A DNA stretch of 64,000 nucleotides from Acidimicrobiia bacterium (lineage in GTDB: Bacteria > Acidobacteriota > Vicinamibacteria > Vicinamibacterales > UBA2999): the NCBI GenBank assembly GCA_016871375.1, contig VFYY01000001.1:6616-70615 (forward strand), given 5' to 3'. Within the stretch, counting starts at the first letter, position 1. Each line of letters starts with the position of its first letter. A program made the position numbers and the translations under genes. The notes under the pieces were generated by a model. The model saw only the letters and a program-made list of their open reading frames with translations, made no database searches and was not told where the DNA came from. This document shows positions 16,410 through 64,000 of the stretch, piece by piece.

Positions 16410-16419
16410 CCCCAATGTC

Positions 16420-17643: not shown

Positions 17644-17653
17644 AGAGCTATCT

Positions 17654-17695: not shown

Positions 17696-17697
17696 GC

Positions 17698-41215: not shown

Positions 41216-43312
41216 ATGAAGGTCTATGATGCCGCCGCCATCCGCAACGTGGCCGTCGTCGGTCATGGCGGGTGCGGCAAGACGCAGCTGGTGGCCGCCC
41301 TGCTCTTCGCCTCGGGCGCCGTCAACCGGCTGGGCAGGGTCGATGACGGGTCCACCGTCACCGACTTCGACGAAGAAGAGATTGCCCGCAAGCACACCCT
41401 CTCCTCCAGCCTGGCCCACACCGAGTGGCAGAAATCCAAGATCAACCTCATCGACACCCCCGGCTTCGCGAACTTCCTGACCGACGCCCGCTCCGCGCTG
41501 CGCGTCGTGGAAGCCGCCGTGGTGGTCGTCGACGCCGTCGCCGGCGTCGAGGTGCAGACTGAAAAGCTTTGGAGCGAGGCCGCCGGCCTCGGTCTCCCCC
41601 GCGTCGTCGCCGTCAACCGCCTGGAGCGCGACCGCGCGAGCCTCGAGCGCACGCTTGCGTCGCTGCACCGCGACTGCGCCCGCGAGATCGTGCCCATTCA
41701 GCTGCCGCTCGGCGAGGAGCGCGGCTTCACGGGCGTGGTGGACCTGGTGCGCATGAAGGCGCTGACGTTTGCCGCCGATGGCAGCGGCAAGGTGACCGAA
41801 GGCGACGTGCCGGCGGCGCTGGCGGACAGCGCCGGCAAGGCACGCGAGCAGCTCATCGAGATGGTGGCCGAGGCGGACGAGTCCCTGATGGAGACGTTCT
41901 TCGCCGAAGGGACCCTGACGCAGGAGCAGCTCGTGTCGGGTCTTCGCGCGGCGACGGTCGCCGGCAAGCTCTACCCGCTCGTCTGCACGTCGGGGCTGCA
42001 CGTCATCGGCGCGCAGCCGCTGCTGGACGCGATCGCCAGCTACGTGCCGTCGCCCGCCGAGCGCGACTTTCCCGCGCTGGCGCCGGACGGCACCGACACC
42101 ACGGTGAAGGCGAGCGACACGGCGCCGTATTCCGCATTCGTCTGGAAGACGATTGCGGATCCGTTCGCCGGCCGCATCACCATGCTGCGCGTGGTGTCGG
42201 GGACGCTGAAGTCGGACACGACGGTCCACAACGCCACGCACGATTCGCCGGAGCGCCTGGGCCACCTGCTGGCGCTGCAGGGCAAGACGCAGACACACGT
42301 GGCGGAGCTCAAGGCGGGCGACCTCGGCGCCGTCGCGAAGCTGAAGGACACGAAGACCAACGACGCCCTCGCCGAAAAGACGACCAAGGTGAAGTTCGCC
42401 GAGATCACGTTCCCGGAGCCCGTGCTCTCGTACGCGATCGAGCCGAAGTCGCGCGGGGACGAGGACAAGATCAACCAGTCGATGCAGCGACTCCGCGAGG
42501 AGGACCCGACCATCGGCTACACCCGCGACCCGCAGACGCACGAGCTGCTGCTGGCCGGCCAGGGCCAGCTTCACATCGAGGTCACGGTGGCGAAGCTGAA
42601 GCGCCGGTTCGGCGTCGAGGTGAACCTGAAGCCGCCGCGGATCCCGTACCGGGAGACGATTACCGCCTCCACGGAAGCGCACGGCCGGCACAAGAAGCAG
42701 ACCGGCGGCCACGGGCAGTTCGGCGACTGCAAGATCAGGGTCGAGCCGCTGCCGCGCGGGAGCGACTTCCAGTTCGAGGACGACATCTTCGGCGGCGCGA
42801 TCCCGCGCCAGTTCGTCCCGGCCGTCGAGAAGGGCATCCAGGACGCGCGGATGCGCGGCTTCCTGGCCGGCTACCCGATGGTGGACTTCAAGGCGACCGT
42901 GTTCGACGGGTCGTACCATCAGGTGGACTCGAACGAGCTCTCGTTCAAGATGGCGGGCTCGCTGGCGTTCAAGGACGCGATGACGCGGGCGCGCCCCACG
43001 ATCCTCGAGCCGGTGATGAAGGTCGAGGTCTACTCGCCCAGCGACTTCGCCGGCGACCTGATGGGCGATCTGAACGGCCGGCGCGGCCGCATTGCGGGCA
43101 TGGACACGCGCGGGGCGATGACCGTGATCCGCGCGCAGGTGCCGATGGCGGAGATGCTGACCTACGAGCAGCACCTCACGTCGGCGACCGGCGGCCGCGG
43201 GTCGTACCACATGGAGTACTCGCACTACGAAGAAGTGCCGCAGCACCTGCAGGGCAAGATCATCGCCGCCGCACGGGCGGAGCGGGGGCAGGAAGCGGTC
43301 GAAGAAGTCTGA
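41216..43312 (+). CDS. Elongation factor G paralogue (EF-G2-like translational GTPase)
   Basis: Five-domain EF-G architecture, 698 aa, AGGAGG RBS 8 nt upstream. The G motifs are deviant: G1 is GHGGCGKT (canonical AHIDAGKT) and G3 is DTPGFANF (canonical DTPGHVDF). It is not in a str operon context. Confidence 0.88.
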   Translation: MKVYDAAAIRNVAVVGHGGCGKTQLVAALLFASGAVNRLGRVDDGSTVTDFDEEEIARKHTLSSSLAHTEWQKSKINLIDTPGFANFLTDARSALRVVEAAVVVVDAVAGVEVQTEKLWSEAAGLGLPRVVAVNRLERDRASLERTLASLHRDCAREIVPIQLPLGEERGFTGVVDLVRMKALTFAADGSGKVTEGDVPAALADSAGKAREQLIEMVAEADESLMETFFAEGTLTQEQLVSGLRAATVAGKLYPLVCTSGLHVIGAQPLLDAIASYVPSPAERDFPALAPDGTDTTVKASDTAPYSAFVWKTIADPFAGRITMLRVVSGTLKSDTTVHNATHDSPERLGHLLALQGKTQTHVAELKAGDLGAVAKLKDTKTNDALAEKTTKVKFAEITFPEPVLSYAIEPKSRGDEDKINQSMQRLREEDPTIGYTRDPQTHELLLAGQGQLHIEVTVAKLKRRFGVEVNLKPPRIPYRETITASTEAHGRHKKQTGGHGQFGDCKIRVEPLPRGSDFQFEDDIFGGAIPRQFVPAVEKGIQDARMRGFLAGYPMVDFKATVFDGSYHQVDSNELSFKMAGSLAFKDAMTRARPTILEPVMKVEVYSPSDFAGDLMGDLNGRRGRIAGMDTRGAMTVIRAQVPMAEMLTYEQHLTSATGGRGSYHMEYSHYEEVPQHLQGKIIAAARAERGQEAVEEV

Positions 43313-43347
43313 GGTTCCGGGTTCCGGGTTCCGGGTTCGACGTTCGG
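43313..43347. repeat. Heptanucleotide tandem repeat (GGTTCCG)3 + two degenerate units
   Basis: GGTTCCG GGTTCCG GGTTCCG GGTTCGA CGTTCGG, immediately after the EF-G paralogue stop codon. Confidence 0.9.
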
Positions 43348-43377
43348 CCCTGGCGGCTCCCGCCGCCAGGGCCTTTT
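43346..43377 (+). terminator. Intrinsic terminator of the EF-G paralogue
   Basis: GGCCCTGGCGG-ctcccg-CCGCCAGGGCC followed by TTTT: an 11-bp perfect GC-rich stem. Confidence 0.85.
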
Positions 43378-43413
43378 CGTGTGCGCGACTACTGCCGTGT
43401 GCGCGACTACTGC
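43378..43413. repeat. Perfect 18-bp tandem duplication
   Basis: CGTGTGCGCGACTACTGC occurs twice back-to-back (43378-43395, 43396-43413). It lies between the terminator and the stop of the convergent gene, overlapping the latter by 7 nt. Confidence 0.9.
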
Positions 43414-45788
43414 GCCTGGCGCACTCGGAGCGTGATCGAGTACGGCTCCGGCCCCTCGGCGTCGACGAACGTCTTCCATCCCAGGAGAGCACCCCCAGAC
43501 AGAGGCCGTGGATTCACGGACGCGCTGAAATCGAGGTCGGGCGCCTCTGGAAACGGAGCCGTCAGCACGATCGGCGCCAGCACCGCCTGCGCCTGGAGGA
43601 TCGTTCCCGTCAGCTCCTGGAGGAAGGTGTTGCGGCCGTGCGTCGCCGTGCCGCCCTGGGTGCCGCTGACCGTCACCCCTCCGCTGCGGATGGCAAACCC
43701 TGGCGGGAGAAAGTCGCCTTGAATGGACGTCGGCAACGGATACCCGCCGATCGCGGCGGTGGCCAATCGCCCGGCATCAATGTTCATGACCACGGACGTG
43801 TTGCGGAGCGTGTAGAGAAAGTAGCCCCCTGTCGCAAACAGGCGCGCCTGCTTCTCGGCTGAGGTCCTCAGGCTGCGGAACGTCGCCAGCTGCGTGGTGA
43901 CGACGGTCCCGCCCCGAATGGTCACCCTGAGCATGAGCCTGCTGGTGCCGGGACGCGCAGCGGGGTCCACGATGGTGAACGCCTCGGGGTTCGGCTCGGC
44001 GCCCGCGCGCTGCCACACGCCGGCGGCAGAATCGATGTCGTTGATGCGCAGTGGCGCCGGGACGACCGGTCCGGTCCCTTCCCACGTCGCCTGGATGCGC
44101 TCGATGATGGGGTCGGATGGATTCCCGCTATCGCTCTCACGGAAATTGCTCGCGATGCGGCCCTCGACGCGGTGGTTGACCGGCTGCCAGGTGCATTCGA
44201 GCAGCTCTCGGAACGGCAAGTTGAACGTCGGCGCCGGCCGCGTCACCGCGCAGGTGCTTGCGGCGTCCGCGTCGTAGGAGGCCTGAATCACGTCCACCTG
44301 CGGCGCAGCGAATACCTGCCCCGCGACCGCGTTCTCCTCCAGCCCCAGGCGCCCGCGGAAGACGAGCACGAAGAAGCCGGTGGGGTCATCGGGCGGTACG
44401 TCGAGCGGATATCGATTCCACGCGCCCGGCGCGAGCGAGATTGGGTTACCGCCATTGAGGACGGACCACCGGACTCGTTCCTCGGAAGCGCTCCCCTTCT
44501 GATAGCGGCCGTAGACCTCGAACACGCCCTCGAGCGGTTCGGCCGACTGGTTCTCCACGTCGATGAAGATCAGCGTGCTGCCGATGGGACCAACGCGGCG
44601 GACACCGACCTTGCCGCGGAAGAAGTAGTCGAGCACGCCGCGCGCGTACCCGACGGCGCGCGGCAGCATGTGCGTGGCCGTCTCCTCCCACACGGCCTCG
44701 TCCACGCACGGATACGGCGCCGGCCTGCCGGCGCTCCACCGGCTCAGAACGCTCTCGCTTGCGCACTCGGCCAGGGCGACGCTTGTCGGCAGTCCCTGGC
44801 CTGCAGGCTTGGCGAAATAGCGGCGGACCTGCGGGCTGTGCGGCGCCACGCGCGGGTTTGGCGTCAGCGCATCGCGGCGGGGAAAGGTGAACTGGCCCGT
44901 CAGCGTGTCCTCGCTGAAGAAGTTCGCGCTCGCGAACTCGGCGAGCCCGATGGGACCCGACAGCGTCAGGTTCGGATCCAGCGCCTCCTGCTCGTACCGG
45001 TCAGAGTCGATGAGCCGCGCGACCGGCGCCTTCGCGATCGTCTCTCCAGGCGGCAACACGATGTTGAACACCGAGGTGTCGATCGCGATCGGGCTCGACA
45101 GATACCGCGCGCGGAACGCTGCCTCGGCGGCTTTCTTCTGCGTGTCGTTCGCGCCGTCATGCTGATCCGACACCCAGTATTCGTAGTTTCCCGCCTTCTT
45201 GCGGAACAAGTACTTTCGCGAGATCTCGCCGAACGGATGCGCATCGTCTCGTGTGTGCTCGGGCACGGAGGCATCCACGACGAGGTGCATGACGTGGCCG
45301 AGCGCCCGGAACATGTCCGCAGCGGCCGCTTCTCGTTCTTGCGCGTCTGAGACGGTCAGGGCGCGAAAATAGAGTTCACGCGCGCGTTGCCACGACCAAT
45401 TCCCGCCAGGCGATTGATCGGCACTCTGCATCCAATGAATGGATGAGCGACGCTGGGTCAGGAAGTTCAGACCCGCTTCAGGCCACGCCTTGAGAGGGTT
45501 GTGGAAGTGGTTGAGATACCGACTGTTTATCGGTACGCCATCGTCTTCGTGTTCGCCGCCCTCCTCGATCCATTGCTCAATGGTGAACGCCTGTGCTCCT
45601 CTGCGGAGACGTGTTTCACGCGCGCCGACGAGTCCGAGAGACGAGCGAATGTAGTTGTCGAAGGCCGCGTACTCGAGAGCAGCGGAATTGATCAGACGAT
45701 GCGTCGAGACATTCAGCGCGGTTAGATTCGCTGAGCTATAACCAGCGGCAAGGACTACTAGCAACGTAAGCGCGCCCCTCGGCAACAT
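43407..45788 (-). CDS. Large secreted protein with N-terminal zinc-dependent phospholipase C / P1-nuclease-like motifs
   Basis: Start moved to ATG 45788 (signal-like MLPRGALTLLVVLAAGYSSA). Motifs YLNHFHNP and GHVMHLVVDASVPEHTRDD resemble the His/Asp zinc ligands of the PLC/P1 nuclease fold. The remaining approx. 550 aa have no recognisable motif. Confidence 0.6.
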   Translation of the reverse strand: MLPRGALTLLVVLAAGYSSANLTALNVSTHRLINSAALEYAAFDNYIRSSLGLVGARETRLRRGAQAFTIEQWIEEGGEHEDDGVPINSRYLNHFHNPLKAWPEAGLNFLTQRRSSIHWMQSADQSPGGNWSWQRARELYFRALTVSDAQEREAAAADMFRALGHVMHLVVDASVPEHTRDDAHPFGEISRKYLFRKKAGNYEYWVSDQHDGANDTQKKAAEAAFRARYLSSPIAIDTSVFNIVLPPGETIAKAPVARLIDSDRYEQEALDPNLTLSGPIGLAEFASANFFSEDTLTGQFTFPRRDALTPNPRVAPHSPQVRRYFAKPAGQGLPTSVALAECASESVLSRWSAGRPAPYPCVDEAVWEETATHMLPRAVGYARGVLDYFFRGKVGVRRVGPIGSTLIFIDVENQSAEPLEGVFEVYGRYQKGSASEERVRWSVLNGGNPISLAPGAWNRYPLDVPPDDPTGFFVLVFRGRLGLEENAVAGQVFAAPQVDVIQASYDADAASTCAVTRPAPTFNLPFRELLECTWQPVNHRVEGRIASNFRESDSGNPSDPIIERIQATWEGTGPVVPAPLRINDIDSAAGVWQRAGAEPNPEAFTIVDPAARPGTSRLMLRVTIRGGTVVTTQLATFRSLRTSAEKQARLFATGGYFLYTLRNTSVVMNIDAGRLATAAIGGYPLPTSIQGDFLPPGFAIRSGGVTVSGTQGGTATHGRNTFLQELTGTILQAQAVLAPIVLTAPFPEAPDLDFSASVNPRPLSGGALLGWKTFVDAEGPEPYSITLRVRQAQ

Positions 45789-51480: not shown

Positions 51481-51519
51481 GCAAAAACAAAAGGCCCGGC
51501 GACGTCGTCGGCCGGGCCT
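51481..51519 (-). terminator. Intrinsic terminator of the rpoA-rplQ operon
   Basis: Minus strand reads AGGCCCGGC-cgacgacgtc-GCCGGGCCT followed by TTTTGTTTTTG. Confidence 0.85.
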
Positions 51520-51534
51520 CTGTCTGGAGCTTGA

Positions 51535-51575
51535 GCGTTGGGCGTTGGGCCTTGGGCCTTGGGCCTTGGGCCTTG
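51535..51575. repeat. Heptanucleotide tandem repeat (GCSTTGG)6
   Basis: GCGTTGG GCGTTGG GCCTTGG GCCTTGG GCCTTGG GCCTTG, directly abutting the rplQ stop codon and upstream (in the transcription sense) of the terminator. Confidence 0.9.
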
Positions 51576-52169: not shown

Positions 52170-52205
52170 AGCGTTTCCTGCCGGCTGCCCACTGCCCGCT
52201 GCCGA

Positions 52206-53189: not shown

Positions 53190-53351
53190 GGAGTGCTTCC
53201 TTTCGCGAACGGGCCGCCAGGTGCGGCCTCCAGACCTGCGAGTCGTGTCCGCCGGCCTCCCGCTGCAGGTCTGTAAAGCTGCGGGCCGGCGGATGCGACG
53301 TAGGGCGGGTTCCGCGCCGGGTCCCGTGAGCGGACCCGCCGGGCACCCGGC

Positions 53352-53981: not shown

Positions 53982-53997
53982 TCAGTCGATCCTTGTC

Positions 53998-54064
53998 ATT
54001 TGCGATTTCCGAATTGCGATTCGTGATGTCACATCACAGATCACAAATCACAAATCATCGATTC
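53998..54064. repeat. Degenerate heptanucleotide repeat array (ATTTGCG family) with imperfect dyad symmetry
   Basis: 7-nt phased units ATTTGCG ATTTCCG AATTGCG ATTCGTG ATGTCAC ATCACAG ATCACAA ATCACAA ATCATCG fill the rpsK-rpsD spacer. Confidence 0.85.
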
Positions 54065-54514
54065 TCACACCCTGCGACGCTTGGTCGGACGGCAGCCGTT
54101 GTGCGGATTCGGCGTGACGTCGCGGATCGACTTCACCTCGATGCCGACGGTCTGCAGCGCCCGGATGGCCGACTCGCGGCCCGACCCCGGCCCCTTCACC
54201 CGCACGTCCACGGAGCGCAGGCCGTAGTTCTTGGCGGCGTTGCCGGCGTTCATGGCGGCCTGGGTGGCCGCGAACGGCGTTCCCTTGCGCGAGCCCTTGA
54301 AGCCGATGCCGCCCGCGCTCGACCACGCGATCACGTTCCCCTCGGTGTCGGTGATCGTGATGTGCGTGTTGTTGAACGAGGCGTGGATGTGCACGTAGCC
54401 GTGGTGCACCACGCGCTTCTCGCCGCGCTTCTTGAAGGTCTTCTTGGGCGCCTTCTTGCCGCCCTCGCCCTTCTTGGGAACGTCGGGTGTTGCCGCTGCT
54501 TCAGTCTTGGCCAT
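54065..54514 (-). CDS. rpsK: 30S ribosomal protein S11 (Lys-rich N-terminal extension)
   Basis: ...[45 protein letters not shown]... is canonical S11. Confidence 0.95.
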
Positions 54515-54527
54515 GATTCCTCAGCGA

Positions 54528-54908
54528 TTACTTCGTCTCGGCCTTCCGCCGGGCGACCGCACCCTTGCGCGGCCCCTTGCGCGTGCGCGCGTTGGTGCGC
54601 GTGCGCTGCCCGCGCACGGGCAGGTTGCGGCGGTGGCGCAGGCCGCGGTAGCAGCCGATCTCCATCAGCCGCTTGATGTTCATCGAGATCTCCTTGCGGA
54701 GGTCGCCCTCGACGCCGCCCACCTCTTCGATCACGCGGCTGATCTTGCGGACATCGTCTTCCGACAGGTCCTTGACGCGGATGTCCCCGCTCACGCCCGC
54801 CGCCGACAGGATGTCGTTCGAGCGCTTCCGCCCGATCCCGTAGATATAGGTCAGCCCGATCTCGACCCGCTTGGTCCGCGGCAGATCGACGCCAGCAATA
54901 CGCGCCAT
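54528..54908 (-). CDS. rpsM: 30S ribosomal protein S13
   Basis: [30 protein letters not shown]... is canonical S13. Confidence 0.96.
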
Positions 54909-54911
54909 CGC

Positions 54912-55025
54912 TTATCCCTGCCTCTGCTTGTGCTTCGAGTTCGTGCAGATCACGCGCACGACACCGCGCCTGCGCACGACCTTGCACTTGTCGCAAATTC
55001 TCTTCACCGACGCTCGTACCTTCAT
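54912..55025 (-). CDS. rpmJ: 50S ribosomal protein L36
   Basis: Not in the ORF track (37 aa). My reverse translation gives [37 protein letters not shown]-stop, which is canonical L36 with a CxxC...C...H zinc ribbon. Confidence 0.93.
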
Positions 55026-55031
55026 AAGGTC

Positions 55032-55256
55032 CTACAGCTTTCTCACGATCCGGCCGCGGGTCAGATCCCGCGGCGTCAGCTCCACGACGACCCGGTCGCC
55101 GACGAGCACCCGGACGAAGTTCTTCTCGACCCCGCCGCCGATGTGCGCCGTCACCCGCGCGCCCTCGACGGTCACTGCATACAACCCGCTCGGCAGCTGC
55201 GCCGCGACGACGCCTTCCATCTGCGATGTGCGATTTGCGATTCGTGAATCATCCAT
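55032..55256 (-). CDS. infA: Translation initiation factor IF-1 (divergent)
   Basis: MEGVVAAQLPSGLYAVTVEGARVTAHIGGGVEKNFVRVLVGDRVVVELTPRDLTRGRIV aligns with the IF-1 S1-like fold. The ORF-track start at 55256 places the first 12 codons inside the heptamer repeat, so the true start is probably ATG 55220. Confidence 0.8.
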   Translation of the reverse strand: MDDSRIANRTSQMEGVVAAQLPSGLYAVTVEGARVTAHIGGGVEKNFVRVLVGDRVVVELTPRDLTRGRIVRKL

Positions 55257-55288
55257 ACGTCACAAATCACGAGTCACACATCACAAAT
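55223..55288. repeat. Heptanucleotide repeat, dyad form (4 units + 10-nt spacer + 4 inverted units)
   Basis: GCGATGT GCGATTT GCGATTC GTGAATC - atccatacgt - CACAAAT CACGAGT CACACAT CACAAAT. By my count the arms match at 17 of 22 positions, and every mismatch is a C/T transition. It fills the map-infA spacer. Confidence 0.9.
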
Positions 55289-56075
55289 GCGCGTGAGGGA
55301 GCAGCTCGCGCGCCTTGTCGGCGTCCTGCTCGAGCAGCGTCAGGATCTCCCGCCCGTCGCCGGTGACGACCACCGTGTGCTCGAAGTGCGCCGACAGGCT
55401 CCCGTCGCGCGTCACCGCCGTCCACCCGTCGCCCAGCACCTTCACCGCCGGGTCGCCGAAGTTCACCATCGGCTCGATCGCCAGGACCATCCCTTCCGAC
55501 AGCCGGGGACCGCGGCCGCCGGGTCCGTAGTTGGCGATCTGCGGCTCCTCGTGCAGCGCGCTGCCGATGCCGTGCCCGACGAACTCGCGCACCACCGAGA
55601 ACCCGTGCGCCTCCACGTGCCGCTGCACGGCGGCGCCGATGTCCGACACCCGCGCGCCCGGCTTCACCGCGTCGATGCCCATGAAGAGCGCTTCCTGCGT
55701 CACCTTCAGGAGCGTCTCCGCCTCCGGCGACACGCGCCCGATCGGCACCGTCACCGCGCAGTCGCCGAAAAACCCGTCGAGCTTCGCGCCCATGTCGATG
55801 GAGAGAATGTCTCCGTCGACGAGGGTGCGGGCCGAGGGGATCCCGTGGACCACCTGCTCGTTCACCGACACGCACACGGTGGCGGGATACCCGTGATACC
55901 CCTTGAACGCCGGCTCGGCGCCCGCCGCGCGCACCTGCGCCTCGGCATACGCGTCGAGCTCCTGCGTCGTCACGCCGGGCGCCGCCCTCCCGCGCAGGTC
56001 GGCGAGAATCCGCCCCACGAGCTGGTTCACCCGGCGGAGCCTGTCGATCTCCGCCTTCGACCGGCAGACGATCAC
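55281..56075 (-). CDS. map: Type I methionine aminopeptidase
   Basis: GTG start at 56075 overlapping the adk stop (GTGA). Motifs FKGYHGYPATVCVSVNEQVVHGIP, DILSIDMGAKLDGFFGD, FVGHGIG, LAIEPM, HFEHTV (metal ligands). Confidence 0.93.
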   Translation of the reverse strand: MIVCRSKAEIDRLRRVNQLVGRILADLRGRAAPGVTTQELDAYAEAQVRAAGAEPAFKGYHGYPATVCVSVNEQVVHGIPSARTLVDGDILSIDMGAKLDGFFGDCAVTVPIGRVSPEAETLLKVTQEALFMGIDAVKPGARVSDIGAAVQRHVEAHGFSVVREFVGHGIGSALHEEPQIANYGPGGRGPRLSEGMVLAIEPMVNFGDPAVKVLGDGWTAVTRDGSLSAHFEHTVVVTGDGREILTLLEQDADKARELLPHAHL

Positions 56076-56740
56076 GCCACCGCCCCGCCCACGGCCGCCG
56101 CGTCGTCGATCACGGTGTCGAGCTCGTGCGCGACCCGGTCCGGCGGCTGCGCGCCGTTCACCACGCGGAACGTCGGCCGCTCGCGGTAGTACTCGACGAG
56201 CGGCCTGGTGGTGCGCTGGTAGACCTTGAGGCGCTCCATCACCACGTTCCTGTCGTCGTCGACGCGCGTCACCATCTCGCCGCCGCAGCGCTTGCAGGCC
56301 GCCGCCGCCGCCTCGCCCGGCTCGGCGTTGGTGCCGCACCCCGAGCAGATGCGCCGCTCGGCCAGCCGCCGCACCAGCTCCTGCTCGGGAACGACGATGT
56401 CCACGACGACCAGCGGCCCGCTGCCGCGCTCCTCGACCAGCTGGTCGAGCGCGCGCGCCTGCGCCACCGTCCGCGGAAAGCCGTCGAGGACGAACCCGGG
56501 CTTCGCGTCCGGCCGCGACAGCCGCTCGCGGACGATCGCCACCATCGTGTCGTCGTCCACCAGCTCGCCGCGATCCATCTTCGCCTTGGCGGCCAGCGCC
56601 ACGGGCCACTGCTCCTTGACCCCGTCGCGGAGGATGTCCCCCGTCGAGATCTTGGGCAGGCCGCGCTCGCGCGCAAAGCGCGCCGACTGGGTGCCCTTTC
56701 CCGCCCCGGGCGGCCCGAGCATGACGATGTTCAGCCCCAC
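56072..56740 (-). CDS. adk: Adenylate kinase
   Basis: MGLNIVMLGPPGAGKGTQ P-loop and a zinc-lid CSGCG...CKRCGGE. Confidence 0.95.
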   Translation of the reverse strand: MGLNIVMLGPPGAGKGTQSARFARERGLPKISTGDILRDGVKEQWPVALAAKAKMDRGELVDDDTMVAIVRERLSRPDAKPGFVLDGFPRTVAQARALDQLVEERGSGPLVVVDIVVPEQELVRRLAERRICSGCGTNAEPGEAAAAACKRCGGEMVTRVDDDRNVVMERLKVYQRTTRPLVEYYRERPTFRVVNGAQPPDRVAHELDTVIDDAAAVGGAVA

Positions 56741-56752
56741 CTGCGCCCCTGA

Positions 56753-58138
56753 TCAGCCCCGGCGTCCGCGAATCCTGGTCTTCTTCATGAACCCGTCGTA
56801 GTGCCGCATGATGAGCTGCGACTCGACCTGGTTCACGGTGTCCATGGCCACGCCGACGACGATGAGGAGCGAGGTGCCGCCGAAGAAGAACGTGACGCCG
56901 AGACCCGTCGACACCCACTGCGGCATCAGCGCCTCGAGCTGCTCGCCGATCCCGGGGATCGGCGCCAGGCGCACGCCGCTGATCAGGAACGTCGGGATCA
57001 GCGCGATGACCGCGAGGTAGACCGCGCCGACCAGCGTGATGCGGCTGAGAATCGTGTCGATGTACTCCGCCGTCCGCTTGCCCGGCCGGATGCCGGGAAT
57101 GAACCCGCCGTACTTGCGCATGTTCTCCGCCACGTCATCCGGGTTGAAGATGATCGCGGTGTAGAAGTAGGCGAAGAAGATGATGCCCACCACGTAGAGC
57201 AGGTTGTAGAGCGGCATGTTGTAGCCGAGCTGATCCGTGATGGCGCGGCCCCACGAGCCGGTCGGGAACATCGTGGCGATGGTGGCGGGGAACGCCAGGA
57301 TCGACGAGGCGAAGATGACCGGGATGACGCCGCCGGTGTTGACCTTCAGCGGGATGTGCGTGCTCGAGCCGCCGTACTGGCGCCGGCCGACCACGCGCTT
57401 GGCGTACTGCACCGTGATTCGACGATGGCCGCGCTCGACGAAGATGATGCCGGCCACGACCGCCACCATCATCAGCAGCAGGAACACGATCCGCAGCAGG
57501 CTGATCTGCCCGGTGCGCATCTGGTCGAACGTGGTCAGCACCGCGCTCGGCAGGCCGACGACGATGCCGGCGAAGATGAGCAGCGACATGCCGTTGCCGA
57601 TGCCGCGCTCGGTGATCTGCTCGCCGAGCCACATCACGAACAGCGTCCCCGTCGTCATCGTGACGACGCACATGAAGCGGAAGCTCCAGCCCGGCGCGTA
57701 GACGAGCGGCACGCCGGCGATCTGCGTCTGGTTCTCGAGCCAGACGGCGATGCCGAGCGACTGCACGAGCGCGAGCCCGAGCGTGAGGTAGCGCGTGTAC
57801 TGCGTGATCTTGCGGCGGCCGAGCTCGCCTTCCTTCGAGATGCGCTCGAGGGTCGGCCACACGACGGTGAGCAGCTGCAGGATGATCGACGCGCTGATGT
57901 ACGGCATGACGCCGAGCGCGAAGATCGTCATCTGCGACAGGTTCTGCCCGGAGAACATGTCGTAGAGGCCGAACATCGTGTTCCGCGTCTGTTCCGCCAG
58001 CACGAGCAGCGCCTGCGGGTTCACTCCCGGGGTGGTGATGTGGCTGCCGATGCGATACACGCCGAGCAGCGCCAGCGTGAACAGCACGCGGTTGCGCAGG
58101 TCGGCGATCTGGAACAGGTTCTTGAGCGCGTTTTCCAT
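56753..58138 (-). CDS. secY: Preprotein translocase subunit SecY
   Basis: 461 aa. ...LFTLALLGVYRIGSHITTPGV..., MFSGQNLSQMTIFALGVMPYISASIILQLL is canonical SecY. Confidence 0.96.
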   Translation of the reverse strand: MENALKNLFQIADLRNRVLFTLALLGVYRIGSHITTPGVNPQALLVLAEQTRNTMFGLYDMFSGQNLSQMTIFALGVMPYISASIILQLLTVVWPTLERISKEGELGRRKITQYTRYLTLGLALVQSLGIAVWLENQTQIAGVPLVYAPGWSFRFMCVVTMTTGTLFVMWLGEQITERGIGNGMSLLIFAGIVVGLPSAVLTTFDQMRTGQISLLRIVFLLLMMVAVVAGIIFVERGHRRITVQYAKRVVGRRQYGGSSTHIPLKVNTGGVIPVIFASSILAFPATIATMFPTGSWGRAITDQLGYNMPLYNLLYVVGIIFFAYFYTAIIFNPDDVAENMRKYGGFIPGIRPGKRTAEYIDTILSRITLVGAVYLAVIALIPTFLISGVRLAPIPGIGEQLEALMPQWVSTGLGVTFFFGGTSLLIVVGVAMDTVNQVESQLIMRHYDGFMKKTRIRGRRG

Positions 58139-58585
58139 TTAGGCCAGCACTTCTGCCGCGCCACCCGCCGCGGCGATCTTCTCCGCCGCCCTGCCGCTGA
58201 ACTTGTGCGCCCGCACGGTCAGCTTCTTCGCGATGTCGCCGCGGGCGAGCACCTTGATCGGGGCCGTGGCGCCGTGCACCAGGCCGCTCTCGCGGAGCAG
58301 CTCCGGCGTGATCACCGTGCCGGCGTCGAAGCGCTCGGCCAGCGTGTCGAGGTTGACGACCGCGTACTCGCGGCGGAACCCGTTGTGGAACCCGCGCTTC
58401 GGGATGCGCCGGTGCAGCGGCATCTGGCCGCCCTCGAACCCGCGCTTGAACTTGAAGCCCGAGCGCGACTGCGCGCCCTTGTGGCCGCGCCCGGCCTGCG
58501 CGCCCTGGCCCGTGCCGTGGCCGCGGCCGACGCGCTTCTTCGCGTGCTTCGCCCCCTGGGCCGGCTTGAGATTGGAGAGATCCAT
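58139..58585 (-). CDS. rplO: 50S ribosomal protein L15
   Basis: Start set at ATG 58585: MDLSNLKPAQGAKHAKKRVGRGHGTGQGAQAGRGHKGAQSRSG... The upstream ORF-track codons lie in the heptamer repeat. Confidence 0.94.
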   Translation of the reverse strand: MDLSNLKPAQGAKHAKKRVGRGHGTGQGAQAGRGHKGAQSRSGFKFKRGFEGGQMPLHRRIPKRGFHNGFRREYAVVNLDTLAERFDAGTVITPELLRESGLVHGATAPIKVLARGDIAKKLTVRAHKFSGRAAEKIAAAGGAAEVLA

Positions 58586-58661
58586 ATGTGTATTTGTGAT
58601 TTGTGATTTGTGATTTGCGATTTGTGATTTGTCTTCACGAATCACGAATCGCACATCGTCA
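58586..58661. repeat. Heptanucleotide tandem repeat (ATTTGYG)6 followed by degenerate inverted units
   Basis: ATTTGTG x3, ATTTGCG, ATTTGTG, ATTTGTC (58592-58633), then TTCACGA ATCACGA ATCGCAC ATCGTCA. It fills the rpmD-rplO spacer. Confidence 0.92.
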
Positions 58662-58868
58662 ATCGCTCACCCTCACCAAATGACGCACCTTGTGAATCAT
58701 GCCGCGTGTTTCCGGCGTGTCCGGCAGCTCCACCGTGTGGCGGATGCGGCGCAGGCCCAGGCCTTCCACCGTCAGCGCCTGCGTCTTGTTGAACCCGATC
58801 GGGCTGCGCAGGAGGGTCACCTTGACCCGCTTCGCGGCCGCGCCCTTCGCTGCAGTCTTCTTGGCCAT
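58659..58868 (-). CDS. rpmD: 50S ribosomal protein L30
   Basis: ...VKVTLLRSPIGFNKTQALTVEGLGLRRIRHTVELPDTPETRGMIHKVRHLV is canonical L30. Confidence 0.93.
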   Translation of the reverse strand: MAKKTAAKGAAAKRVKVTLLRSPIGFNKTQALTVEGLGLRRIRHTVELPDTPETRGMIHKVRHLVRVSD

Positions 58869-58870
58869 CG

Positions 58871-59395
58871 TTACGCCCCGACCAGTTCCCCTTCTTCCTT
58901 GCCGCGCATCCGCGCCACCAACGCCGGATCCTTGAGGCCCATCAGCCCCGAGAAGGTGGCGCGCACCACGTTGTGCGGGTTCGCCGATCCGAGCGACTTC
59001 GTCAGCACGTTCTGGATGCCCGCCGACTCCACGACCGCGCGGACGGCGCCGCCCGCGATGAGCCCGGTGCCCTCGGGCGCCGGCTTGAGCAGCACGCTGC
59101 CCGAGCCGAAGCGGCCGACCACCTGGCGCGGAATCGTGGTGCCCCTGAGCGGGACCTTGATGAGGTTCTTCTTCGCGGCCTCGATGCCCTTCTTGATCGC
59201 CGACGGCACTTCCTTCGCCTTGCCGACGCCGAAGCCCACCACGCCGTGGCCGTCGCCGACGACGACCAGCGCGCTGAAGCTCAGGTTCTTGCCGCCCTTG
59301 ACGACCTTCGTCACGCGGTTGATCGAGACGACCGTGTCCTTGATCTCGAGCTGGGACGCGTCGATCTTCTCGCGGTCGCGATTCATGTTCGCCAT
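58871..59395 (-). CDS. rpsE: 30S ribosomal protein S5
   Basis: ...[49 protein letters not shown]... is canonical S5. Confidence 0.96.
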
Positions 59396-59769
59396 CAGAA
59401 CTCCAGACCTGCTTCGCGCGCCGCGTCGGCCACCGCCTTCACGCGCCCGTGATAGAGGAACCCGTTGCGGTCGAACACGACGCGCTTGACGCCCTGCTCG
59501 AGCAGCCGCTCGGCGATCGTCTTGCCGATCGCCTTGGCGCCCGCGACGTTGCCGCCGCGCGCGTCCTGCTTCATGCCGCCCTTCACCTTCGGCTCGACGC
59601 TGGACGCCGACGCGATCGTCCTGCCGGTCCTGTCGTCCACCACCTGCACGTAGATGTGCGCCACGCTGCGGAACACCGTCAGGCGCGGCCGCGCCTCGGT
59701 GCCCTGCACGCGCTTGCGGATCCGGTGCTTGATCCGGTCCCGGCGATCCTCTTTCGTCTTGATCCGCAT
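59395..59769 (-). CDS. rplR: 50S ribosomal protein L18
   Basis: ...[31 protein letters not shown]...[27 protein letters not shown] is canonical L18. Confidence 0.95.
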
Positions 59770-59771
59770 CG

Positions 59772-60320
59772 TTATGCTCCGGTCTTCCCGACCTTCTTCT
59801 TCAGCACTTCGCCCGTGTAGCGGACGCCCTTCTGCTTGTACGGGTCGGGCTTCCGCATGCGGCGGATGTTGGCCGCCACCTGGCCGACGAGCTGCCGGTC
59901 GGCGCCCGTCACCGTGATGTGCGTCTGCTTGTCGATGGCGACGTCGATCCCGTTCGGGATGTCGAACACGATCGGATGCGAGTAGCCGAGGGCGAACACC
60001 ACCTGCTTGCCCTTCACCTCGGCGCGGTAGCCGATGCCGACGATGTCGAGCTCCTTCTTGAAGCCCTCGGTCACGCCGGCCACGGCATTGGCGACGAGGC
60101 TGCGCGCCAGGCCGTGGAACTTGCGCAGCTCGCCGTCCTCGCGGGCCAGCGACGCCACCAGCTGGTCGCCGGCGCCGGTCTTGTCCCGCGCGAACACGAT
60201 GCCCGGCGGCAGCGCCTGCCGCAGCTGCCCCTTCGGGCCCTTCACTTCGACCGCGTCGGGCGCAATCGTGACGGTGACGCCCTTCGGGATCGGGATCGGC
60301 TTCTTACCAATTCGAGACAT
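59772..60320 (-). CDS. rplF: 50S ribosomal protein L6
   Basis: [33 protein letters not shown]... is canonical L6. Confidence 0.96.
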
Positions 60321-60326
60321 GGTCCA

Positions 60327-60740
60327 TTACCACACGTTGCAGAGCACTTCGCCGCCGACGCCGGCCTTGCGGGCCGCGCGACCGGTCATCACGCCGCGCG
60401 AGGTCGTCAGGATGCTCGTACCCAGGCCGCCGAGCACCGTCGGCACGTCGTCGACGCCGAGATAGACGCGGCGCCCCGGACGGCTGATGCGCTCGATGCC
60501 GCTGATCACCTTCTCGCCGCGCGGGCCGTACTTGAGGAACACGCGAATCACCTGGCGCGGCTGCCGGCCCTCCTTCTCGGCCGGCTCCTCGACGAGGCGA
60601 TAGCCCTGGATGTAGCCCTCGTCCTGCAGGATGCGGGCAATCTCCGCCTTGAGCCTGCTGGCGGGCAGGTCCACCCGGGAGTGCTTGGCCGCAACCCCGT
60701 TGCGGATGCGCGCGAGCATGTCGGAAATCGGATCTGTCAT
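60327..60740 (-). CDS. rpsH: 30S ribosomal protein S8
   Basis: MTDPISDMLARIRNGVAAKHSRVDLPASRLK... is canonical S8. Confidence 0.96.
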   Translation of the reverse strand: MTDPISDMLARIRNGVAAKHSRVDLPASRLKAEIARILQDEGYIQGYRLVEEPAEKEGRQPRQVIRVFLKYGPRGEKVISGIERISRPGRRVYLGVDDVPTVLGGLGTSILTTSRGVMTGRAARKAGVGGEVLCNVW

Positions 60741-60747
60741 ATCCCTC

Positions 60748-60933
60748 TCACCACGAGCTCTTGGTCACGCCGGTGATGTCGCCTTCGAGCGCCAGCTTGC
60801 GGAAGCAGAGGCGGCACATCGAGAACTTGCGGATGAACGCCCGCGGCCGCCCGCACAGCTTGCAGCGGTTGCGGAGGCGGATCTTGTACTTGGGTGGCTT
60901 CGCTTCTTTCGCGACTTTTGCTGTCGTTGCCAT
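60748..60933 (-). CDS. rpsN: 30S ribosomal protein S14, short zinc-binding (type Z) form
   Basis: 61 aa with [22 protein letters not shown] (CxxC...CxxC). Confidence 0.94.
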
Positions 60934-60943
60934 CTCGATCCTT

Positions 60944-61489
60944 CTAGTTCGTGGTCCGGAACGGCATGCCCATGAACTGCAGCAGCTTCCGCGCCTCTTC
61001 GTCGGTCCTGGCCGTCGTCACCACCGACACGTTCATCCCGCGCGCCTTGTCGACCTTCATGTAGTCGATCTCGGGAAACAGCAGCTGGTCGCGCAGGCCC
61101 AGCGTGTAGTTGCCGCGGCCGTCGAACCCCTTCGGCGACACGCCGCGGAAGTCGCGCACGCGCGGCAGCGCGATGTTCATCAGGCGGTCGAGGAACTCGT
61201 ACATCCGCTCCCCGCGCAGCGTGACCATCGCCCCGACCGGCATGCCCTGGCGCAGCTTGAACTGCGCGATGGACTTGGTGGCGCGGCGCACGACCGCCTT
61301 CTGGCCGGTGATGCGCGACAGCTCGTCGGCGCCGACGTCGGCCAGCTTGGCGTTCTGCGTCGCCTCGCCGAGCCCCATGTTGATGACGACCTTCTCGATC
61401 TTGGGGATCGCCATGACGTTCGTGTAGCCGAACTCCTTCTTGAGCGCCGGCACGACGTCCTTCTGATACCGCTCTTTCAACCGGCTCAT
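60944..61489 (-). CDS. rplE: 50S ribosomal protein L5
   Basis: Start set at ATG 61489, overlapping the rplX stop (ATGA): [43 protein letters not shown]... Confidence 0.95.
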
Positions 61490-61818
61490 TTGTCGACCAC
61501 TCCCTCGCACTTGCGGCAGATCCGCACCTTGCGGCCGTCGTTGAGGATCCGGTGCCCGACGCGCGTCATCTTGCCGCACTCGGGGCACACGAGCTGGACG
61601 TTGCTGGCGTGCAGCGACGCCTCGCGCTCGACGATCCCGCCCTTGATGTTGCGCTGCGGGTTCGGCCGCGTGTGGCGCTTGATGATGTTCACGCCCTCCA
61701 CGATCAGCCGGTTCCGCGTCGGGAGCACCTTCAGCACGCGCCCCCGCTTGCCGCTGTCCTTGCCGGTCGTGACGACCACCTGGTCGTTGCGGCGGATCGG
61801 TGTTTGCAGTCTCGACAT
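61486..61818 (-). CDS. rplX: 50S ribosomal protein L24
   Basis: ...[24 protein letters not shown] (KOW motif). It carries a CPECG...CRKCEG zinc-ribbon-like C-terminal segment. Confidence 0.94.
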
Positions 61819-61849
61819 AGTTCGTTCCCGGGCCGACTACCGTCGGCCC

Positions 61850-62218
61850 CTACAGCACCTCGGGCGCCAGCGAGATGATCTTCATGAACCGGCGCTCGCG
61901 GAGCTCGCGCGCCACCGGCCCGAACACGCGCGTGCCCACCGGCTCGCCCTGGTCGTTGATGAGCACCGCGGCGTTGCGGTCGAAGCGGATGTAGCTGCCG
62001 TCGCGGCGGCGCTGCTCCTTGACCGTGCGCACGATGACCGCCTTGACGACCTGCCCCTTCTTGACCGTCCCGTCCGGCGTCGCTTCCTTCACCGAGGCGG
62101 TGATGATGTCGCCGAGCCGCGCGTAGCGGCCGGTGGACCCGCCAATCGGGTTGATGACGGCGATCTTGCGCGCGCCGGAGTTGTCGGCGACGTCGAGAAT
62201 CGATCGCATCTGAATCAT
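61850..62218 (-). CDS. rplN: 50S ribosomal protein L14
   Basis: [33 protein letters not shown]... is canonical L14. Confidence 0.96.
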
Positions 62219-62230
62219 GGCGGCTCTCCG

Positions 62231-62485
62231 TTAGACCTGCGGCGCCCTGGCGACGACGCGCGTGACGACCCAGCGCTTGCGCCGGCTGAGCGGACGCGAC
62301 TCGGCGATGGCGACCGTGTCGCCCACCTTCGCCTCGTTGTTCTCGTTGTGCGCGACGAACGTCGACGTCTTGCGCTGCGACTTGCCGTACACGTCGTGCC
62401 GCACCTGCCGCTCGACGGCGACGACGACGGTCTTCTCCATCTTGTCGCTGACGACGGTGCCGGTGAGTTGTGACTTAGCGCTCAT
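62231..62485 (-). CDS. rpsQ: 30S ribosomal protein S17
   Basis: ...[29 protein letters not shown]... is canonical S17. Confidence 0.95.
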
Positions 62486-62492
62486 GTCCTGC

Positions 62493-62696
62493 CTACTGCC
62501 GGCTGCCGGCTGCCTGCTTCTCTTTCAGAATCGTCTTGATCCGGGCCAGGTCCTTGCGGACCTCGCGCACCCTGGCCGGCGCCTCGAGCTGGCCCATCGA
62601 CTTCTGGATGCGCAGCCGGAAGAGCTGATCGTCGAGGTCCTTCACGCGCGCGCGCAGATCGTCGACCGTCAGCTCGCGGATCTCCGCCACCTTCAT
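62493..62696 (-). CDS. rpmC: 50S ribosomal protein L29
   Basis: Start set at ATG 62696, overlapping the rplP stop (ATGA): [38 protein letters not shown]... Confidence 0.93.
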
Positions 62697-63118
62697 GACA
62701 CCCTCTCCTGCGCGAAGCGCGTGGCGAACTTGGTCTTGATGGGCAGCTTGGCCGCGGCGAGCTCCATCGCGCGCCGGGCGTCGACCTCGGGCACGCCCTC
62801 CATCTCGAAGAGGATGCGGCCGGGCCGGATCACGCACACCCATTCCTCGGGCGCGCCCTTGCCCTTGCCCATGCGCGTCTCCTGCGGCTTCTTCGTGATC
62901 GGCTTGTCGGGGAAGACGCGCACCCAGATCTTGCCGCCGCGCTTGGTCGACCGCGCCAGCGCCACGCGCGCCGCCTCGATCTGGCGCGCCGTCATCCAGC
63001 ACGGCTCCATCGCCTTGAGCCCGAAGTCGCCGAACGACACGTCGGACCCGCGCCACGCCTTGCCGGCCATGCGCCCGCGCTGCTGCTTCCTGTACTTGAC
63101 CTTCTTCGGCATCAACAT
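62693..63118 (-). CDS. rplP: 50S ribosomal protein L16
   Basis: [36 protein letters not shown]... is canonical L16. Confidence 0.96.
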
Positions 63119-63154
63119 GATGCGATTCCTCGTTCCACGTTCCGCGTTCGCTCG

Positions 63155-63844
63155 CTACGCTCGCCGCTCAGGACGACGCGGCGCCCGATCGCGATATTCC
63201 TCGTCGCGGCCCACGCGCGGCACGAGGCGCTCGCCCTTGTAGAGCCACACCTTCACGCCGATCTGCCCGTAGGTCGTGTTGGCTTCCGCGAAGCCGTAGT
63301 CGATGTCCGCGCGCAGCGTCTGCAGCGGCAGCTGGCCGTGCAGGTACCACTCGGAGCGCGCGATTTCCGCGCCGTTCAGCCGCCCCGACACGCGCACCTT
63401 GATGCCGCGCGCGCCGAAGCGCAGGGCGGACTCGACCGCCTTGCGCATCGCGCGGCGGAACGCCACGCGCTTCTCGAGCTGCACGGCGACCGACTCGGAG
63501 ATCAGCTGCGCCTCGAGCTCCGGCTTCTGGATCTCCTGGATGTTGATGAAGACCTGGCGGCTCGTCCGCTTCTGGATCTCCTGCTTTAGCTTGTCGACCT
63601 CCGTCCCCTTGCGGCCGATGATGATGCCCGGGCGCGAGGTGTAGATGTCGATCTTCAGGTTGTTCGCCGCGCGCTCGGTCTCGATGCGCGACACGCCCGC
63701 GTGCGAGAAGCGCTTCTTCAGCTCCTGCCGCAGCTTCAGGTCCTCGTGGAGCAACTTCGCGTACTCCTTGTCCGAGAACCAGCGCGAGCGCCAGGTCTTG
63801 TTGAAGCCGAGCCGGAATCCGTAGGGGTGAACCTTCTGGCCCAC
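63155..63844 (-). CDS. rpsC: 30S ribosomal protein S3
   Basis: GTG start at 63844 preceded by AGGAGA: [23 protein letters not shown]... is canonical S3. The upstream ORF-track codons lie in the heptamer repeat. Confidence 0.95.
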
Positions 63845-63854
63845 AGTCTCTCCT

Positions 63855-63931
63855 ATTTGCGATTTGTGATTTGTGATTTGCGATTGGAGCTGTGATTCGA
63901 AATCACAAATCGCAAATCGCAAATCGCAAAT
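63855..63931. repeat. Heptanucleotide repeat, dyad form: (ATTTGYG)4 + spacer + (CRCAAAT)4
   Basis: ATTTGCG ATTTGTG ATTTGTG ATTTGCG (63855-63882), a 21-nt spacer, then CACAAAT CGCAAAT CGCAAAT CGCAAAT (63904-63931). It fills the spacer between the presumed rplV and rpsC. Confidence 0.93.
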
Positions 63932-63935
63932 GTCA

Positions 63936-64000
63936 TTACGCCTTCGCCGCCGCCGCGCGCTTCGGCGCCGCGGTCTTTCTCGCTCGCGCCGGTTTCTGCG
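63936..64000 (-). CDS. rplV: Probable 50S ribosomal protein L22, C-terminal tail only (partial at window end)
   Basis: Reverse frame reads ...[20 protein letters not shown]-stop (TAA at 63938-63936). The assignment rests only on the conserved gene order L22-S3-L16 and the basic tail; no core L22 sequence is visible. Confidence 0.5.

Follow-up and report, generated by a model that had tools for sequence, protein, structure and literature searches.

Introduction

Intervening sequences (IVSs) of bacterial 23S ribosomal RNA (rRNA), known from Coxiella burnetii and also named in Leptospira and Salmonella, are insertions with terminal inverted repeats that an abundant transcript carries and yet remains functional. 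The Coxiella IVS has a 28-bp terminal stem that is cut by RNase III, an open reading frame (ORF) for S23p in its loop, and, in its 5′ part, two to three tandem GACAGAT heptamers (CAG N4), the number of which varies between strains (PMC4990558). Here we analyze a stretch of 64,000 nucleotides (nt) of an acidobacterial genome (contig VFYY01000001.1 of assembly GCA_016871375.1, positions 6,616 to 70,615), hereafter the window, in which four spacers inside the ribosomal-protein operons are filled with inverted arrays of a 7-nt unit, ATTTGYG/CRCAAAT. We consider the balance of evidence to tip, by a little, toward these four loci being ORF-less members of an IVS-like class of stem-loop insertions whose arms are inverted 7-nt arrays. 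The likeness lies in the terminal inverted repeats (26–31 nt in the window, 28 bp in Coxiella), in tandem CAG N4 heptamers of variable number in the 5′ arm, and in residence in abundant transcripts; the S23p (PF05635) gene of full-length IVSs has a counterpart in the loops of dyads of this architecture at eight places outside the window. The heptamer dyads differ in lying in intercistronic or 3′ mRNA gaps rather than in a 23S rRNA helix, in being mostly ORF-less (as are all window copies), and in being so numerous in some genomes that 20 kb hold tens of copies, with several unit families per genome. Cutting of the stem by RNase III is an experimental result for the rRNA IVSs and a prediction for the heptamer dyads.

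Intergenic heptamers have been described as GGGAATC in Xanthomonas and GGGGAYT in Nostoc (PMC4692102) and as TAACTGA in Beggiatoaceae, Cyanobacteria, and Bacteroidetes (PMC4679880). Like the arrays of the window, these known heptameric repeats (the short tandemly repeated repetitive sequences, or STRR, of cyanobacteria, those of Xanthomonas, Nostoc, and Beggiatoaceae, and those of Mrazek 2007) are 7-nt intergenic units present above chance, which lie close behind the upstream ORF, at its 3′ end, and for the most part separate co-directional genes; they too occur inside ribosomal-protein operons (before the S4 and L3 genes), are followed by weak ribosome-binding sites, vary in copy number, and have no established function. 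They are described as direct arrays, with one inverted among 170 sets in BOGUAY, whereas the arrays here form dyads of fixed polarity, fall into many families, and are linked to PF05635, a link mentioned in neither PMC4679880 nor PMC4692102.

Repetitive extragenic palindromes (REPs), bacterial interspersed mosaic elements (BIMEs), and the REPINs associated with RAYT proteins in Enterobacteria and Pseudomonas are also short, palindromic, multicopy, and genome-specific, lie in transcribed extragenic gaps, and form mRNA hairpins. REPs within ~15 nt of a stop codon can reportedly stall ribosomes and lower upstream expression (Liang, Rudd and Deutscher 2015). A REP is a fixed palindrome of 20–40 nt, whereas heptamer arms are periodic, the ATTTGYG unit contains no GTAG, the heptamer elements are not known to have a RAYT gene, and their partner gene, if any, is PF05635. 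Miniature inverted-repeat transposable elements differ in that a heptamer dyad at rplE|rpsN lacks a target-site duplication (one clean pair). Ribosomal-protein leaders are likewise structured RNAs of ribosomal-protein operons but are conserved, covarying, and fixed in site, which the heptamer elements are not, nor do these match Rfam; a pseudoknot in the rpsD|rpoA spacer of the same block behaves like such a leader.

We found no prior description of dyads with fixed polarity, of their stop-codon register, of their saturation and turnover in Vicinamibacterales, or of PF05635 dyads outside rRNA, and no literature linking heptamer repeats in general to PF05635 or reporting heptamer dyads in Acidobacteria. 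PF05635/S23p is a large family, of which the only studied member, to our knowledge, is the Avd accessory protein of diversity-generating retroelements. An IVS-like identity would link three features that have stood unexplained for decades, the excess of heptamers between bacterial genes, the IVSs that fragment 23S rRNA, and the S23p/PF05635 family, through an architecture common to rRNA, to conserved operons (mraY|murD, topA, manC), and, in ORF-less form, to up to most ribosomal-protein junctions of a major soil phylum. It also raises the question of how tightly coupled operons tolerate inserts of 60–120 nt at nearly every junction. On the practical side, the repeats break assemblies and yield false N-terminal extensions in gene calls.

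Results

The ribosomal-protein block of the window lies on the minus strand in the order rplV-rpsC-rplP-rpmC-rpsQ-rplN-rplX-rplE-rpsN-rpsH-rplF-rplR-rpsE-rpmD-rplO-secY-adk-map-infA-rpmJ-rpsM-rpsK-rpsD-rpoA-rplQ, with gene identities established by homology. A sequence-only reading of the window had placed arrays of one heptamer family at 53998–54064 (rpsK|rpsD), 55223–55288 (map|infA), 58586–58661 (rpmD|rplO), and 63855–63931 (rplV|rpsC), and they are present at all four positions. ATTTGYGATT occurs 27 times, both strands counted, against 0.05 expected, a number reached in none of 100 shuffles. All four loci, and not three as that reading had it, are dyads, with arms of 26–31 nt that are 77–90% complementary. 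The filled spacers of rplV|rpsC, rpmD|rplO, map|infA, and rpsK|rpsD measure 92, 73, 60, and 83 nt, and folding of the transcribed strand, which had been proposed as a check, gave RNA fold z-scores of −6.6, −4.3, −2.8, and −2.0, respectively. Most other junctions of the block are short, as had been noted: none exceeds 36 nt save rpsD|rpoA (162 nt).

The best-kept of the four dyads fills the rplV|rpsC spacer (63845–63936, minus strand), where four ATTTGYG units, a 15-nt center, and four CRCAAAT units form 31-nt arms of 90% complementarity and a sense-strand fold of −36.8 kcal/mol; the rpsC Shine–Dalgarno sequence AGGAGAG and GTG start (63844) fall outside the stem. Here mismatches between the arms are confined to the Y/R position, as had been claimed for the family, but the other three dyads vary elsewhere in the unit too (ATTCGTG, ATGTGCG). 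On the mRNA of the rpmD|rplO spacer (58586–58658, minus strand; −19.8 kcal/mol), a degenerate 5′ arm, CGATGTG CGATTCG TGATTCG, faces a 3′ arm of six CACAAAT-type units, and the rplO ATG (58585) follows directly after it. The map|infA dyad (spacer 55221–55280, minus strand; −22.2 kcal/mol) is in 7-nt register with its neighbors on both sides, its 5′ arm with the map TGA stop (TGA TGTG / TGA CTCG / TGA TTTG) and its 3′ arm with the infA ATG (ATC GCAC / ATC GCAG / ATG). In the rpsK|rpsD spacer (53982–54064, minus strand; −26.2 kcal/mol), a degenerate dyad is followed by the conserved rpsD ribosome-binding region ACAAGGATC.

Two further ATTTGYG loci lie in the type IV pilus operon pilB-pilT-pilC-pilS-pilR, at 16346–16410 and 17650–17693. 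The first is the best-kept dyad of the whole family (pilC|pilS spacer 16340–16419, minus strand; −36.1 kcal/mol, z −8.3), and the pilS ATG lies inside its final unit (CAAATGA), pairing with a CAU just past the pilC stop. The second, in the pilT|pilC spacer (17644–17697, minus strand; fold z −0.9), consists of just one arm, six ATTTGYG units as read along the mRNA, and lacks a partner. Thus rplO, infA, and pilS each begin directly after a 3′ arm, with no Shine–Dalgarno sequence. The sequence-only reading had taken N-terminal extensions across the repeats to be spurious, and mechanically called ORFs do traverse them, but the infA extension may be real. infA could start at ATG GAA GGC (55220) or at a second ATG (55256), in frame with it and within the loop of the dyad; because a close relative (locus L081, 12871–12945) has ATC at the position of the former and keeps the latter, the extension may not be spurious. 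The 3′ arm may be translated (MDDSRIANRTSQ- here, MDQSQIANHESQ- in L081), or the start codon of infA may be nonstandard.

The SecY comparison places the window in the Vicinamibacterales (Acidobacteriota), in a soil or lake acidobacterium for whose genome the coverage is these 64 kb. The NCBI copy of the identical SecY (window 56753–58138, P0001) is labeled "Acidimicrobiia bacterium"; its close relatives are all Vicinamibacterales/Acidobacteriota, and the name probably arose through a mistake in binning or in taxonomic assignment. Ribosomal-protein junctions were compared across 42 Vicinamibacterales loci (L001–L037, L078, L081, L083, L086, and the window; L-numbers denote comparison loci from relatives and metagenome contigs). 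These junctions are either compact (≤15 nt) or filled (60–130 nt), in a mosaic that varies from genome to genome, and the overlapping pairs rplP|rpmC, rplX|rplE, and adk|map are the only ones that are always closed. The best period is 7 in 164 of the 282 filled spacers (58%), with a lag-7 identity of 0.43 vs. ~0.27 at other lags; the median fold z is −2.8, and in 263 of the 282 one hairpin of 10 or more pairs (median 26) dominates the fold. Across 81 loci, 241 arrays have period 7, 41 period 8, and 32 period 5. The ATTTGYG family is absent from the orthologous operons of 80 species-level relatives, whose spacers carry heptamers of their own (CAGCTTC, CCAGTTG, ATCCTCA, GGGACCA, TTCAGGA), so that the notion of a single family is right for this genome but not for its relatives, which fill the same spacers with other heptamers. 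The same unit recurs at many sites within one genome, several unit families coexist per genome, and four loci (L003, L004, L019, L023) have a dyad at nearly every ribosomal-protein junction.

Some dyads are built of 8-nt units: those at rpsK|rpsD and map|infA in L018, at rpsK|rpsD in L005, and flanking the PF05635 gene in L195 (GAATTGGT, ATCCTCAN, GTAGACAA). The period is strongly, not absolutely, 7.

The hairpins keep close to the flanking genes, starting at a median of 3 nt past the stop codon and ending at a median of 13 nt before the start codon, so that looping out the hairpin leaves 17 nt of an actual 90; empty junctions have a median of 10 nt. The 5′ arm stands in 7-nt register with the stop codon in 22 of 65 cases (chi-square P = 0.0008), and in 20 of 41 where the stop is TAG, whereas the 3′ arm shows no significant register with the start codon (P = 0.2). 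Polarity is fixed in all 67 scored dyads, and no family occurs in both orientations. Of the two triplets, CAG stands in the 5′ arm of 44 dyads and CTG in that of 5, and the 3′ arms mirror this, giving the usual form 5′-(CAG N4)n ... (N4 CTG)n-3′ with an average of ~4.4 units per arm. Arrays without a scored partner follow the same rule (35:6 and 27:9), and polarity is fixed in the ATTTGYG family too, including the metagenome copies. The latter come from a scan for three consecutive ATTTGYG units, which returned contigs of 36–70% GC from many taxa (the source of L105, L136, and L195). Loops are diverse, mostly of 3–6 nt, and ends vary, with no conserved loop or terminal motif; the only recurrences of AGCGTTCC are between two copies of L081 and within one orthologous pair.

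Gene calls outside the ribosomal block, and hence the per-gap array counts, are rough. On these calls, co-directional or convergent gaps contain 28 arrays in 90 gaps outside the block, against none in 20 divergent gaps, and divergent gaps of the window are likewise free of them; what is specific is thus placement behind a stop codon in gaps of the first two kinds. Coding sequence accounts for 28 of 284 arrays, in keeping with the intergenic placement that the sequence-only reading had suspected. There was no sign of the targeting to highly expressed genes for which that reading had proposed a test: array density on the same calls is 0.42 per kb inside the ribosomal block and 0.18 outside, an excess that disappears when counted per junction, and two loci lie in the pilus operon. 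We therefore rejected targeting to highly expressed genes. A Shine–Dalgarno energy of −5 or below is found for 44–47% of genes after filled junctions and for 71% after compact ones.

That the elements look inserted into a cluster of the S10-spc-alpha type, and not at its classical boundaries (rpsQ|rplN is 12 nt and rpmJ|rpsM 3 nt), is borne out by filled and empty junctions in the close relative L081. Its SecY is 99% identical and its DNA ~93% identical to those of the window, and occupancy differs at most junctions. L081 is without an element at rpmD|rplO (14 nt) and rpsK|rpsD (where the genes overlap as TAATG), as is L083 (3 nt and the same overlap), and ten junctions that are compact in the window carry elements in L081. 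In L081, rpsJ|rplC and rplN|rplX each hold an ATTTGTG dyad, rpsM|rpsK holds an array of one arm only, and a second family (GGCAGNN/NNCTGCC) occupies seven junctions that are compact or different in the window. At rplE|rpsN the filled site of L081 equals the empty site plus 63 nt between the TAG stop and AAGGATC, with no target-site duplication in this one clean pair. Whole spacers are also swapped for unrelated GC-rich hairpins, and two loci with an identical PF05635 protein (L212 and L213) differ in unit number, whereas no variation was found among three assemblies of the window's own strain (L084 and L085 are identical to the window). Junction contents are not conserved between relatives; the elements are gained, lost, or exchanged faster than the flanking genes diverge, which argues against a conserved function tied to site.

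TAG is the commonest stop at nonoverlapping ribosomal-protein junctions of the 42 loci (53% of compact and 61% of heptamer-filled ones), and overlapping junctions use TGA. Two junctions that are empty in the window and filled in L081 have TGA or TAA as their stop in the former and TAG in the latter, and the arrays may influence stop-codon choice.

In L003, two opposite arrays stand 420 nt apart, and the ORF between them (19359–19751) is a PF05635 "23S rRNA-intervening sequence protein" (E = 4e-32); a PF05635 ORF likewise occupies a dyad loop in L004 and L019. The orthologous macB-like|PF05635|EF-G-like locus is found in L207, L211, and L212 (~1501–1887), where the arms, though ~400 nt apart, co-vary as whole arrays (CAGCTTC/GAAGCTG in some genomes, CCGCTTC/GAAGCGG in another). 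Three loci included for other reasons are independent cases of this arrangement: L136 (41% GC) has seven ATTTGTG units, the unit of the window, then a PF05635 ORF and six AATCACC units; L195 has a PF05635 ORF between 8-mer arrays; and L065 has one with CAG-type arrays upstream and CTG-type arrays downstream. Five homologs picked by protein similarity alone, from genomes of 35–54% GC, are all flanked by inverted short-period arrays, at topA/arginase, mraY/murD, manC/ABC-2, between an efflux adaptor and a major facilitator superfamily (MFS) transporter, and beside NADH dehydrogenase genes. Every PF05635 gene examined thus lies in such a dyad loop, at eight independent places in several phyla. 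The flanking arms form duplexes of z −2.3 to −7.7 in 9 of 11 loci and of −1.0 and −1.5 in the two with the longest flanks. The sole solved relative, XCC0516 of Xanthomonas campestris, has a Protein Data Bank entry with five chains and is a homopentameric toroid (PMC4990558).

Many Vicinamibacterales keep a PF05635 gene between MacB-like permease and EF-G-like genes; in the window the EF-G-like gene (41216–43312, plus strand) is divergent from its neighbor (39486–40790, minus strand), and no PF05635 ORF is present there. Very many PF05635 homologs lie on contigs of 0.5–1.5 kb, as would be expected if repeat arms on either side of the gene break short-read assemblies.

Sense-strand folds are stabler than antisense folds in 195 cases vs. 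83, by a mean of 2.6 kcal/mol. In folds that forbid G-U pairs, single mismatches comprise 126 G/T and 163 A/C, most mismatches are purine–purine, and the pattern is strand-symmetric; the sense-strand advantage is due to purine-rich composition and not to wobble pairs kept on the mRNA strand. The stems of the two best copies are long enough for a double-strand-specific RNase.

Discussion

The anatomy, position, polarity, and turnover of the dyads and their association with PF05635 genes are the observations that lead us to favor IVS-like insertions, and no rival accounts for the PF05635 association as well. The design of the class would be that of the 23S rRNA IVS: inverted arms, a stem of ~25–30 bp, and a loop that is empty or holds a gene for PF05635 (S23p, an Avd-like four-helix bundle). 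Such elements would persist in transcribed but untranslated gaps right after stop codons, within operons or before terminators. If the arms pair in the polycistronic RNA, the extra 60–120 nt would be looped out, so that the next ribosome-binding region would follow the stop codon at about the distance found at an empty junction, and translationally coupled operons would tolerate the insert because the stem removes it from the stop-to-start path. A ribosome arriving at the stop codon would then have to open the base of the stem beside the next start. By analogy with the rRNA IVS, a long, near-perfect stem is probably a substrate of RNase III, so that well-kept copies may be excised or the operon RNA cut there; this cleavage, the mode of spread, and any effect on expression are what we infer beyond the observed pattern. 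Slippage would change unit number, and the arrays are quickly gained and lost, which makes it probable that most copies are selfish or close to neutral and do not serve as regulators of particular sites.

Several points weigh against an IVS-like identity. Pairing and cleavage in vivo are read from sequence, single-arm arrays cannot form a stem, and all the named dyads but that at rplV|rpsC are degenerate (z −2 to −4). The mismatches give no independent sign of selection for RNA pairing as distinct from homogenization of the arms at the DNA level, with no excess of G-U over A-C on the mRNA strand. Loops and ends are not conserved among the copies compared, nor was target duplication seen. The PF05635 association is a small sample, eight places with no matched control set; the 64-kb window has no PF05635 gene, and the link of its ATTTGYG family to PF05635 comes from architecture and L136, the ATTTGYG unit itself being without the CAG/CTG core.

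An extension of this reading, attractive but in our judgment unlikely, would make the heptamer dyads and the pentameric ring of PF05635 one widespread element–protein system. Some five consecutive 7-nt units, in RNA or in single-stranded DNA, would be what the ring recognizes, and through it the stem-loops would be spread, maintained, or processed; ORF-less dyads would be nonautonomous copies and the 23S rRNA IVSs a special case. If true, such a system would explain the heptamer excess in many phyla, the role of S23p, and the origin of IVSs.

The rival that survives best, although we would be surprised if it proved sufficient, is that the arrays are plain simple-sequence repeats, grown by slippage in place and made palindromic by template switching, a neutral filler that persists where selection permits and is unrelated to IVSs or to any protein. 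In many bacteria no long simple-sequence repeat is commoner than the heptamer, for which slippage is the proposed cause (Mrazek 2007, as cited in PMC4679880; PMC4692102). Polymorphic unit number (L212/L213), unconserved loops and ends, fast turnover, and the missing G-U excess on the mRNA strand are all in keeping with such filler, but it does not account for an identical unit at many sites of one genome, for a uniform polarity with a CAG/CTG core common to species and families, for arms that co-vary at 400 nt distance, or for PF05635 in the loops at eight independent places.

It is rather improbable that the tandem units are mRNA sites for a repeat-reading protein (S1, a CsrA-like protein, a TRAP/HutP-like ring, or pentameric S23p) that would set translation of the downstream cistron, with the partner arm as a competing anti-site. 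The arrays have a conserved triplet followed by four variable bases, repeated every 7 nt, a pattern that resembles the sites of HutP and TRAP. The weaker Shine–Dalgarno sequences after filled junctions, and their lack at rplO, infA, and pilS, would fit such a role, as would TAACTGA repeats of Beggiatoaceae, which precede starts with poor ribosome-binding sites, including in ribosomal-protein operons (PMC4679880), and the match of ~4.4 units per arm to a pentameric S23p (PMC4990558). Against this, junction occupancy is not conserved even in close relatives, which is at odds with site-specific regulation, several unit families share one genome, and the 3′ arm is not in register with the start codon (P = 0.2).

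We give little credence to REP/REPIN-type mobile elements moved by a RAYT (Y1/HUH) that reads a hairpin plus a short motif (YAG, GTAG), whose biology is described in PMC3116915 and PMC3337134. The dyads are multicopy palindromes peculiar to their genome, the target was not seen to be duplicated, and every unit of L083 (CCGGTAG) contains GTAG, but GTAG is seen only in that unit and is absent from the ATTTGYG family. The arms are periodic, unlike REPs, and there is no fixed element sequence, loops and termini being variable. The arrays occur only in co-directional or convergent transcribed gaps, and REPs are likewise confined to these. No RAYT gene was seen in the loci compared, among which no profile search for one was made.

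Operator or centromere-like DNA sites for a cooperative DNA-binding protein, as for the heptads of the omega repressor of inc18 plasmids (a ribbon-helix-helix protein that acts in promoter regions), are very improbable. In their favor, mismatches are strand-symmetric, and the AATCACA unit fits the omega heptad, WATCACW, which omega binds in direct and inverted copies; against them, the AATCGCA variant misfits it, relatives use unrelated heptamers, and the arrays avoid divergent (promoter) gaps, with no promoter-like sites at the loci. Telomerase-like repeat addition at DNA breaks, which would account for the fixed polarity, was also considered.

Additional Features of the Window

The sequence-only reading held that one heptamer family fills every large spacer; it does fill the four named above, but arrays of other families had been overlooked. 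The rpsC|rplP spacer (63119–63154, minus strand) has four ACGNGGA units of period 7 directly after the stop codon. In the rpoA|rplQ spacer (52170–52205, minus strand), four GGCAGNN units of the second family form a single arm in register with the stop (TAG TCGG CAG CGGG CAG TGGG CAG CCGG CAG), whereas the same junction of L081 holds a complete dyad of 84 nt. At the 3′ end of rplQ (51483–51575, minus strand), 6.6 copies of CAAGGCC (51530–51575) stand immediately past the stop and are followed by a terminator with a GC hairpin and T-run (~51483–51518). Four GGTTCCG units likewise directly follow the TGA of the EF-G-like gene in a convergent gap (43313–43377, plus strand) and precede a terminator hairpin and T-run (43346–43377); the gene was identified by alignment to an L086 gene bearing EF-G Pfam domains. 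An 18-nt tandem repeat (CGTGTGCGCGACTACTGC, ~2.4 copies) at 43378–43422 adjoins this terminator.

At the four named loci themselves, promoter and intrinsic-terminator roles were rejected: no promoter-like or terminator-like sites were found there, and no U-run follows the stems. A known Rfam family was also rejected, with no match at the gathering score anywhere in the window (including no rRNA).

The rpsD|rpoA spacer (53190–53351, minus strand) is 162 nt long and free of the heptamers, as had been reported, but it is not empty. Just upstream of rpoA it contains a conserved H-type pseudoknot of ~105 nt (53190–53295), composed of P1 (CCGCCGGCC/GGCCGGCGG), P2 (CAGACCTGC/GCAGGTCTG), and a hairpin, P3; GAAAGGAAG comes next. 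Across 20 Vicinamibacterales sequences, pairing holds in 95.6% of cells, and 10 of 24 pairs show compensatory changes; none of 500 shuffles does as well, and slid controls give 25–51%. An Rfam search of the spacer at E up to 10 returned only microRNA noise, and the pseudoknot is a candidate for a so far undescribed leader of ribosomal-protein genes or of rpoA. Toward its 5′ end the spacer varies and, in relatives, contains heptamer dyads.

Nonperiodic GC-rich hairpins occur elsewhere in the cluster, at 61819–61849 (rplN|rplX) in the window and at rplO|secY in L081, L083, and L086. Some form families, at map|infA in L023 (GGCGTCCGGCTTTAGCCGGACC, three copies) and at rplV|rpsC and rplN|rplX in L028 (repeats of GCAGGGCTTCAGCCCTGC and TACCAGGGACCACCGGTAGGGC), and these repeated hairpins therefore point to a second, REP-like class of intercistronic palindromes alongside the heptamer dyads.

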